64,000 nt of DNA from Enoplolaimus lenunculus. Taxonomy: Eukaryota. The notes beneath the pieces are model-generated. The model was not told the origin of the DNA. It did not search any database and was given only the letters and a program-made list of their open reading frames with translations. Positions 59,523-61,310 of the stretch are shown piece after piece (position 1 is the stretch's first letter; each line of letters starts with the position of its first letter). The stretch lies in assembly GCA_030248215.1 (NCBI GenBank), contig JASANG010001107.1, positions 1 through 64,000 on the forward strand, read 5' to 3'. The translations under genes and the position numbers were made by a program.

Positions 59523-61310
59523 TGTCGGGTGGGGCCCCAGTGTGCACTCTGTGTCACACTGGTGCTCTCCCTCGGCGTCCCCCTAGCCCCCAGCCATCCC
59601 CTTCCCTCGTCCACCAAACCCCCCCCCCCCCTCCTCGGTTTGGTATCGCGATTTATACATAACCGGTGTAATTTTACCTTGCCATATTGCCTGCTCATTT
59701 GTCAAACACTGTGCTTTAACATGCTTGCCAAATTCTTATAAAACTTACTGTCTTTTCTGTCAATTTAGCTTATGTCAGTTACGTGTATTTTTACATATAT
59801 TTCTTATTATGTTTTCAGGTACTAAAACCCCATTTTCTGACCAAATTCTATGCGCTCAGTTCATTGCGCATTCCCATTTCTGCAAATTCTTCCCCTTTTG
59901 ACCCTTTTGTGCCAGTTCCCACATATCATATTTCTTGTGCTCTTATAAATGCTTATTTTCATGTTTTCAGGCCTCTCCTTCCCGTTTCCTACTAATTTTC
60001 AGGTGCTCATTCCATTTCGCACCTCTATTTCTGCTAATTCTGCCCCGTTTGTGTCTTATTTGTCATAATTCTTTTTATGTCGGGATTATGATGATTCATT
60101 CATTCCGGAGTATTCTTATGATCACTTAGCTATTGTTTTGTGCGTAGCTGACGTAGTTTTACGTGTAAAAGATAGCAACATTTTCGGACGGATAAAAAGT
60201 ATTATTTCTAGCCTTGACGGAGCGTTTAAAAGCATTAATTCGGAATCGGCGTATTTTGTTTGAACGGAATAATAATTTTAAGGCCTGGGGAACTGTTAGT
60301 TGCAATTTTCGTAATTTGTGTGTTATTGTTATAATTGTGCCCGGACGTGGTTTGGTTAGCAGTCCCGTAAGCTGTGTCTGACAGAATCTGCTTCTTTTTC
60401 GCGTATTTATTACATTTTCCCGGAACTTATAATTGTCGTAAAGCTTTTCGGCCGCATGGCCCTCGTTCAAAAGCAATAATCACCAAAACTAGGGAAAATC
60501 GGTAATTAGTTTTAAACGGGACTAACGGGTTTGTGTTTACTATTTTGCGTTGCGCCTTTCTTAGTTGTTAGTGTAAGCATGTGAGACATGCTTGTCCTGG
60601 TGCATATGCAATAAATGCAATGCACAGTGTGTTGTACAGTCGACACATATAGTCGACGAAAAATGCAGTTGGACAGGCGGGCTACGTAGCGCAGTGGTAG
60701 AGTGCTCGCTTAAGGATCCATAGGCTAAGGGTTCGATCCCCGCTCTGGCCCGCTTTTCCAGCTGCTTTAGTAAAAAGGTCTGATGTCCCGGTTCCTACCT
60801 AGACTGACATGGGGGCTACGCCGTGAGCGCAATGGTAAACTGCCGCGCTATGAACACGGTATCCAGTCGAAAATAGGATGGACGGTCAAGGGACGACCTT
60901 GTTGAAAATAAGGGCATGTAAGCATGTGAGACATGCTTGTCCTGGTGCATATGCAATAAATGCAATGCACAGTGTGTTGTACAGTCGACACATATAGTCG
61001 ACGAAAAATGCAGTTGGACAGGCGGGCTACGTAGCGCAGTGGTAGAGTGCTCGCTTAAGGATCCATAGGCTGAGAGTTCGATCCCTGCTCTAGCCCGCTT
61101 TTCCAGCTGCTTGGTAGAAAGGTCTGATGTCCTTGATTCCTACCTAGACTGACAGTTAGTAAAACGGATAAAACGTGTGTTATAAACCCGTACGAGCCAT
61201 AGGAGTGTCTAAACTTGTGTTGAAACTGTTCCAGGATCAACCCGAAACTAGACCATACCCGCCTTCGGATCGGTCGAAAATTCCCGTTTTTGACCAGTCC
61301 AGACCTTAGA
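59523..61310 (+). repeat. gypsy 3' LTR interrupted by TRIM-A
   Basis: Collinear with the 5' LTR once 60572-61159 is removed; terminal CA appears as GA. Confidence 0.95.
60572..61154 (+). mobile_element. TRIM-A: 583-bp non-autonomous LTR element with a tRNA-derived cassette in each LTR
   Basis: 238-bp LTRs 60572-60809 and 60917-61154 (TG...CA), TSD GTTAG, PBS TGGGGGCTACGCCG, PPT GAAAATAAGGG, A box TAGCGCAGTGG and B box GGTTCGATCCC. Confidence 0.93.

Follow-up and report, generated by a model that had tools for sequence, protein, structure and literature searches.

How could an LTR element of only 583 bp, with a tRNA-like unit in each LTR and no protein of its own to encode, be transcribed and moved? 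The question is raised by a locus of Enoplolaimus lenunculus, within a stretch of 64,000 nucleotides (the window; contig JASANG010001107.1 of assembly GCA_030248215.1, positions 1 to 64,000, forward strand), where a preliminary description made from the letters alone had pointed to an intact TRIM whose LTRs hold a Pol III cassette. The parts of this element, TRIM-A, are as follows.

60572-61154, + strand: whole element, 583 bp, LTR-PBS-interior-PPT-LTR
60567-60571, + strand: left TSD, GTTAG
60572-60809, + strand: 5' LTR, 238 nt, TG...CA, ends agreeing with loose ends in public contigs
60680-60751, + strand: tRNA-like unit of the 5' LTR, A box 60687-60697, B box 60731-60739
60754-60757, + strand: run of four T (T4) behind this unit, a predicted weak Pol III terminator and the sole run of at least four T in the LTR
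60810-60827, + strand: PBS, abutting the 5' LTR, its first 8 nt corresponding to the tRNA-Pro 3' end of Fig. S2 in PMC10886601
60834-60844, + strand: small predicted hairpin common to TRIM-A and TRIM-B, pair probabilities 0.67-0.97
60884-60902, + strand: 19-mer identical in TRIM-B, including a 9-mer (60887-60895) common to the Gypsy element
60904-60916, + strand: PPT, 11/13 purines
60917-61154, + strand: 3' LTR, 238 nt, with tRNA-like unit 61025-61096 and T4 61099-61102
61155-61159, + strand: right TSD, GTTAG

The layout that had been described, LTR(238)-PBS-107 bp-PPT-LTR(238) with TG...CA ends over 583 bp, was borne out at these coordinates. The two LTRs are identical in 229 of 239 aligned columns, and the 107-nt interior adds no coding capacity, the longest Met-started frame of the element being 44 aa. 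The word "intact" stands for the structure, which is complete, but is weakened by a short PPT (11 purines in 13 nt) and by the way in which the LTRs differ. Positions 1-155 are identical; the 8 substitutions and the 2 gap columns are confined to positions 156-220, a clustering with a chance of about 0.0001-0.0003, and the LTR pair is therefore not a simple clock. These 65 nt correspond to 60727-60791 in one LTR and 61072-61136 in the other, and 8/8 substitutions are transitions. Both LTRs carry two minority alleles (60627 and 60688) in the identical stretch. Conversion by another copy, a heteroduplex formed during reverse transcription or a local sequence error could each explain the pattern. 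Reading the clustered differences as the U3/R border was dropped, since they could just as well result from gene conversion or local sequence error.

TRIM-A lies in the 3' LTR of a Gypsy element, which itself splits a second tRNA-bearing TRIM, and a third repeat family lies nearby.

50240-61310, + strand: Gypsy element, 5' LTR 50240-51439, 3' LTR 59523-61310
50235-50239 and 61311-61315: Gypsy TSD, AACCT
from 51440, + strand: Gypsy PBS, Trp-type
51284-51288, + strand: empty paralogous site within the Gypsy 5' LTR, one GTTAG that is flanked as at TRIM-A but lacks the element
54401-57877, + strand: Gypsy RT-RNaseH-integrase-PHD frame, 1158 aa
59490-59504, + strand: Gypsy copy of the signal shared with both TRIMs, same 7-nt core, other 4-bp flanks
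49615-61392, - strand: TRIM-B, tRNA-bearing TRIM split by the Gypsy element
61392-61311 plus 50239-50052, - strand: TRIM-B 5' LTR
50051-49957, - strand: TRIM-B interior, 95 nt
49956-49615, - strand: TRIM-B 3' LTR
49610-49614 and 61393-61397: TRIM-B TSD, TACCA
62721-62985, + strand: TRIM-B solo LTR, TSD TCCGA at 62716-62720 and 62986-62990
49337-49581 (+ strand), 62441-62690 (- strand) and 62986-63152 (- strand): family C, a third TG...CA tRNA-bearing repeat

Self-comparison of the window, in which 50240-51439 repeats 59523-61310 minus the element, located the empty site. GTTAG is present once at this place in the Gypsy 5' LTR but twice, on either side of TRIM-A, in the 3' LTR, and the insertion amounts to 588 nt, that is, 583 + 5. 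As the 5' LTR is the empty site, the TSD is 5 bp long, in line with the earlier claim. The order of insertion was TRIM-B, then the Gypsy element, then TRIM-A. A 5-bp TSD was found at four of the six LTR-bounded insertions with both ends present (TRIM-A, Gypsy, TRIM-B and the solo TRIM-B LTR), the chance of one 5-mer flank match being 0.0013; the other two, both of family C, have no TSD. Family C has no PBS and matching flanks at 0/2 complete copies, and its copies are probably older solo LTRs. TRIM-A is young, because the Gypsy LTRs outside a 66-nt patch differ at only 14/1134 positions. This C-rich patch (59568-59633 in the Gypsy 3' LTR, ∼1 kb upstream of TRIM-A) holds 24 of the 38 LTR differences and looks like a local sequencing or assembly error.

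To see TRIM-A in its genome, contigs from three public DNA runs (two samples of one study, possibly the source of the window itself and hence not independent) were aligned to one LTR plus the interior, and depth summed over contigs was not taken as a measure of copy number. In the three runs 214, 218 and 156 contigs exit TRIM-A exactly at 60809 and are unrelated beyond it (agreement 0.35-0.37). Loose ends before 60572 numbered 189, 207 and 117 but partly reflect diverged interiors, so we relied on the counts at 60809. TRIM-A is thus one copy of a large family with many insertion sites, and the absence of other copies with distinct flanks, which would have spoken against the preliminary description, is contradicted by 156-218 different flanks at the LTR end per run. 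Together with the structure and the empty site, this supports its reading as a non-autonomous LTR element. The contigs also contain 52-61 loose ends at 60636, which mark sister LTRs with a different middle part, and two to four direct joints per run between an LTR end and an LTR start.

The host is a nematode, as had been proposed: an exon of the kinesin-3 gene unc-104 gave 27 matches, and all 22 named ones are nematode UNC-104 (77-85%), while a PDB search of a kinesin exon was uninformative on the host. UTP15 gave 52 matches, the best named being insects at ∼40% with no nematode among them. An arthropod host was considered on this ground and dropped, since a tree of the query and 25 of the 52 matches places it in animals outside the insect clade and unc-104 says nematode.

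We next consider the tRNA-like units, which lie exactly where they had been described. A search of 4227 Rfam families, with E values over all of them, matched RF00005 at 60680-60751 with 20.1 bits (E 0.24) and at 61025-61096 with 20.9 bits (E 0.14), both below the tRNA gathering score of 29 bits, and the model covers its positions 1-71 in both LTRs. ARAGORN found 0 tRNAs over the whole window. The low Rfam scores and the ARAGORN result indicate units that are tRNA-derived but decayed. The acceptor stem, described earlier as paired, pairs at five of its seven positions (the outer five intact) but not at the other two, and the anticodon stem is unpaired. In family C the units are better preserved (Rfam 26.8-37.8 bits) and followed by T3 only.

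The A box, B box and nearby TTTT of the preliminary description were all recovered. The A box reads TAGCG..TGG, its fifth base off the published TRGCY, the B box reads GGTTCG in the 5' LTR and AGTTCG in the 3' LTR, and TTTT begins 2 nt behind the unit. With consensus box patterns, the full layout of A box, B box and T4 arose in 1/20000 shuffles of the LTR, and the two boxes alone in 82/20000. The sole T4 of each TRIM-A LTR, and of the whole TRIM-B element, stands directly behind the tRNA unit. The scarcity of T4 elsewhere is a weak signal, as 0.7-0.8 are expected per LTR from the elements' own composition, and the argument from T4 depletion to selection for Pol III was dropped for this reason. 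The A and B boxes are kept in three diverged families (TRIM-A, TRIM-B and C) while the remaining LTR sequence differs. The family contigs show 22 variants at a level of at least 10%; the B-box core and the 19-mer 60884-60902 are free of them, and the A-box variant leaves the box intact; the two commonest interior variants occupy a wobble-compatible stem position (60836) and the loop (60840) of the small predicted hairpin. No Rfam match to a ribozyme family or to 5S rRNA was found in TRIM-A at E up to 1 or up to 5.

TRIMs with tRNA-derived LTR sequence have been named Helenus, or TRIMp3 (Kojima 2024, Biology 13:119, PMC10886601). TRIM-A falls under that definition, so its kind was already published in 2024, and it is almost certainly a TRIM of Helenus design. 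It shares with Helenus a length below 1 kb, two TG...CA LTRs, the absence of coding capacity, a tRNA unit in both LTRs that is degenerate but has A and B boxes, and a PBS for a tRNA 3' end and a PPT at the ends of the interior. The published boxes are TRGCY and YGG, with GGTTC in most families, and as in Helenus the unit is unlikely to be a functional tRNA (no ARAGORN call, 20-21 bits against 29, anticodon stem unpaired). Solo LTRs, several families per genome and both Pro and Trp PBSs in animal families are further common points, and many of the published consensus LTRs show a run of T after the unit.

What sets TRIM-A apart from animal Helenus is first the TSD, which is 4 bp in every animal family with a determined TSD (PMC10886601, Table S1); the text and Table S1 of that paper thus verify the preliminary description, which had mentioned tRNA-bearing TRIMs called Helenus with 4-bp TSDs in animals. 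TSDs of 5 bp are reported for fungal and plant Helenus and for animal Ajax elements (PMC10886601), and 5 bp goes with Gypsy for TRIM-A whereas it goes with Copia in fungi and plants. The host phylum Nematoda is likewise absent from Tables 1 and S1 ("nematod" gave 0 matches). In animal Helenus the PBS region resembles that of a Gypsy in the same genome (PMC10886601); TRIM-B shows this likeness at 14/15 positions, and TRIM-A is Pro-type with no Pro-primed Gypsy in the window. A further difference is that the TRIM-A unit, once CCA is added, can pair with 9 nt of its own PBS, whereas no such complementarity was seen in published Helenus (PMC10886601). Five diagnostic 10-mers gave 0 matches in the Helenus consensus file Data S1, where line breaks may hide one, and the listings of a literature search, with Repbase, Dfam and subscription papers outside its scope, contained no report of a nematode TRIM with a tRNA-derived LTR. 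Within the literature and Data S1 motif searches, the idea of an undescribed nematode lineage with a 5-bp TSD is therefore supported.

Other known systems are less close. Ajax is also an animal TRIM with a Pol III-type LTR promoter and a 5-bp TSD (PMC10886601) and has an interior of 108-113 nt and, by eye, a similar purine-rich core before the PPT, but its promoter is of the 5S rRNA type, its PBS is for Leu, and it is known from nemerteans. Cassandra (PMC7215508, PMC10853983) is likewise a TRIM, 565-860 bp long, whose LTRs each hold both a promoter and a terminator for Pol III, but it is 5S rRNA-derived, has a Met PBS and belongs to plants, and TRIM-A gave no 5S match. Retrozymes differ in that the TRIM-A LTR has no match to a hammerhead or other self-cleaving ribozyme. 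We observed by eye a hammerhead-ribozyme-like core in the wasp elements Helenus-2_SyJa-LTR and Helenus-2_SyUm-LTR of Data S1, which the text of PMC10886601 does not mention.

On balance, TRIM-A is a young, high-copy nematode TRIM with a 5-bp TSD, and we consider it likely that it is transcribed by Pol III from its tRNA-derived unit and mobilized in trans by a Gypsy lineage like that of its host element. A tRNA-type promoter starts transcription at the 5' end of the unit. TFIIIC would bind the A and B boxes, and Pol III would start near 60680. Many transcripts would end at the T4 60754-60757, giving a short RNA of ∼75 nt, and a fraction would read through to the T4 61099-61102, yielding an RNA of 423 nt in which the tRNA unit forms the terminal redundancy (R). 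Host tRNA-Pro would then prime at the PBS, Gypsy Gag-Pol would recognize the RNA, probably via the shared signal before the PPT, and Gypsy integrase would make the 5-bp duplication.

For the source of the template RNA we favor Pol III read-through, with some reserve. Between 60680 and the end of the second T4 lie 423 nt, a stretch that contains no internal T4 other than that of the first unit and has a tRNA unit at both ends; leaky termination is favored because this terminal redundancy is the shape needed for first-strand transfer. Read-through is needed because the T4 60754-60757 follows the Pol III promoter and precedes the PBS. In yeast, T4 is a weak Pol III terminator with frequent read-through, and termination is enhanced by a hairpin immediately before it, for example an acceptor stem (bioRxiv 10.1101/2021.08.27.457903), which would lower the yield of full-length TRIM-A RNA. 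LTR read-through has been reported for Cassandra tandem arrays (PMC7215508).

The same terminator is one reason to ask whether the tRNA unit is a mere passenger or an insulator, the template coming from Pol II transcription of the LTR or from host read-through. The adjacent stem favors termination before the PBS, an AATAAA at LTR position 39 of TRIM-A is a possible Pol II signal, two to three contigs per run join 60597 to 60767 and show that LTR variants without the tRNA unit exist, and Kojima called the Pol III function of Helenus unvalidated (PMC10886601). We nevertheless regard this reading as unlikely, given that no TATA match was found in six LTR sequences, that only one of the six has AATAAA (the LTRs of TRIM-B and family C are without it), that three diverged families retain both boxes and that no B-box core variant reaches 10%.

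Pol III read-through would yield a template but no proteins, and the nearest candidate source of these is the Gypsy element itself. Its RT, RNase H and integrase follow the Gypsy order, its gag/protease region is spread across several frames, and its LTRs are ∼1.2 kb long. The best matches in a homolog search were 44-52% identical and mostly unnamed. Two frames behind pol (57878-58537 and 58883-59449) gave no Pfam match.

The interiors of TRIM-A and TRIM-B are 81% identical outside gaps and have the 19-mer in common, and over the 47 nt that lead up to and enter the 3' LTR both align with the Gypsy element without gaps. The shared signal ends 18 nt before the 3' LTR in all three, and its 9-mer is identical at the same offset; this 9-mer occurs four times in the window against 0.17 expected (0/100 shuffles). 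At the other end of the interior, each of the three PBSs begins directly at the LTR, with positions 9-11 identical in all, and those of TRIM-B and Gypsy agree in 14 of the first 15 bases. The TRIM-A LTRs and the rest of its interior show no similarity to the Gypsy element above shuffles.

The fourth occurrence of the 9-mer is an exact complement in the Gypsy 5' LTR (50293-50301; 0/300 shuffles), and in the Gypsy transcript the 9-mer and its complement, ∼75 nt apart, could pair. Long-range pairing of the 9-mer with the TRIM-A LTRs was tried and rejected as not significant (43/300 and 105/300 shuffles). The flanks of the 9-mer can form a 4-bp stem in which two of four pairs are changed on both sides, but this covariation is not significant because there are three rows only and 59/500 shuffles equal it, and in some contexts energy models often favor other folds. 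The motif itself is a firm observation; a hairpin before the PPT, and a role of it in packaging or reverse transcription, are putative. A text search of the literature found no relevant paper on a motif before the PPT, and the 19-mer had 0 matches in viral contigs; its six matches in metagenome contigs were set aside as chance, all six being without LTRs, tRNAs or further similarity. Purine-rich cores before the PPT can be seen by eye in the available part of the published bivalve and coelacanth Helenus and Ajax sequences (PMC10886601).

The shared 9-mer and the 5-bp TSDs point to this Gypsy lineage as the putative helper, and we are fairly confident that a Gypsy element of this type serves the family. 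The copy present here would fit TRIM-B better than TRIM-A because the TRIM-A PBS is Pro-type whereas the Gypsy PBS, like that of TRIM-B, is Trp-type (types read from Fig. S2 of PMC10886601). No Pro-primed Gypsy was found within the 64-kb window, and a sister Gypsy family is likelier than the present copy to be the helper of TRIM-A. A 5-bp TSD is not foreign to animal Gypsy elements: 20/21 Mag-lineage copies in Culex have it (PMC3286476, Table 1, in the portion available). The Mag lineage resembles the helper model in being animal, with 5-bp TSDs, and in its reported presence in Caenorhabditis elegans, but in Culex it has LTRs of 119-304 nt and Ser, Leu or Arg PBSs (same source, available part), as opposed to the 1.2-kb LTRs, Trp-type PBS and C-terminal PHD finger of the Gypsy element here.

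BEL/Pao elements also make 5-bp TSDs. The helper could thus be another LTR element with this TSD length (BEL/Pao, Copia or an unrelated Gypsy), the nesting being incidental, although we think this quite unlikely. The PBS type of TRIM-A, unlike that of its neighbor, would suit it, as would the assignment of fungal and plant Helenus with 5-bp TSDs to Copia (PMC10886601), the existence of BEL/Pao elements in nematodes (PMC554778, available part) and the similar cores before the PPT in the Helenus and Ajax sequences at hand, by which the signal may be general. Against it stand the exact 9-mer at one offset in TRIM-A, TRIM-B and Gypsy, the common bases on the PBS side with the 14/15 agreement of TRIM-B and Gypsy, and the equal TSD lengths, and even a general signal would still be Gypsy-type in the published animal cases.

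Besides priming by host tRNA-Pro, the short Pol III product might itself be trimmed, gain CCA and prime reverse transcription of TRIM-A. If this were true, one promoter with a leaky T4 would supply both the primer and the 423-nt genome, packaged by Gypsy via a 9-nt signal. The 3' end of the unit with CCA pairs with 9 contiguous PBS bases (-19.2 and -19.5 kcal/mol), and the outer five acceptor pairs are intact, but the Aplysia tRNA-Pro end of Fig. S2 (PMC10886601) binds the PBS better, at -24.6 kcal/mol (a comparison that does not include the host's own tRNA-Pro), and the ninth matching base belongs to the three PBS bases that also occur in TRIM-B and Gypsy. Such a match also arises by descent if unit and primer go back to one tRNA type. 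Variants make up 10-16% of depth at PBS position 8 and ∼2-3% at its would-be partner 60747, with no matched covariation, and by eye the TRIM-B unit does not match its own Trp-type PBS. We hold self-priming to be very improbable because TRIM-B lacks the match and the family variants do not covary.

That the locus is an ordinary SINE lodged in a TRIM LTR, or an assembly artefact, is largely refuted and extremely improbable: the C-rich patch resembling local sequence error ∼1 kb upstream in the Gypsy 3' LTR, the clustered LTR differences of TRIM-A and the fact that none of the contigs listed spans the junctions of the 60572-61154 insertion would speak for it, but both LTRs carry the unit, no direct repeat of at least 6 nt flanks it, contig depth over it is like that over the rest of the LTR, 0 of the 15 joints listed (of 282) excise it at its borders, and the empty site is clean with a 5-bp duplication. 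The preliminary description had named a polymorphic tRNA part with its own TSD as the sign of a SINE, and neither such a flanking repeat nor, among the joints listed, one at the borders of the unit was found.

TRIM-A and TRIM-B extend TRIMs with a tRNA promoter to nematodes, and a 5-bp animal case that was likely moved by Gypsy breaks the published split between animals (4 bp, Gypsy) and fungi and plants (5 bp, Copia). The dependence of such TRIMs on an autonomous partner was named as an open question by Kojima in 2024 (PMC10886601), and the signal that TRIM-A, TRIM-B and the Gypsy element have in common, with constant spacing from the 3' LTR, offers a directly testable partner candidate. The layout of TRIM-A also makes a sharp prediction, namely, that a Pol III promoter yields template despite a terminator before the PBS. 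For annotation, hundreds of such LTRs can inflate the tRNA and SINE counts of this genome.

The remainder of the window is occupied in part by the unc-104/KIF1A kinesin-3 gene, with many exons at 1773-26305 (- strand), and by the UTP15 frame, intronless and ∼511 aa long from the first Met, at 42714-44309 (- strand). A repeat of ∼170 bp forms short tandem clusters at 20093-20570, 34996-35482 and 37336-38413, and an 18-bp tandem array lies at 24912-25197.
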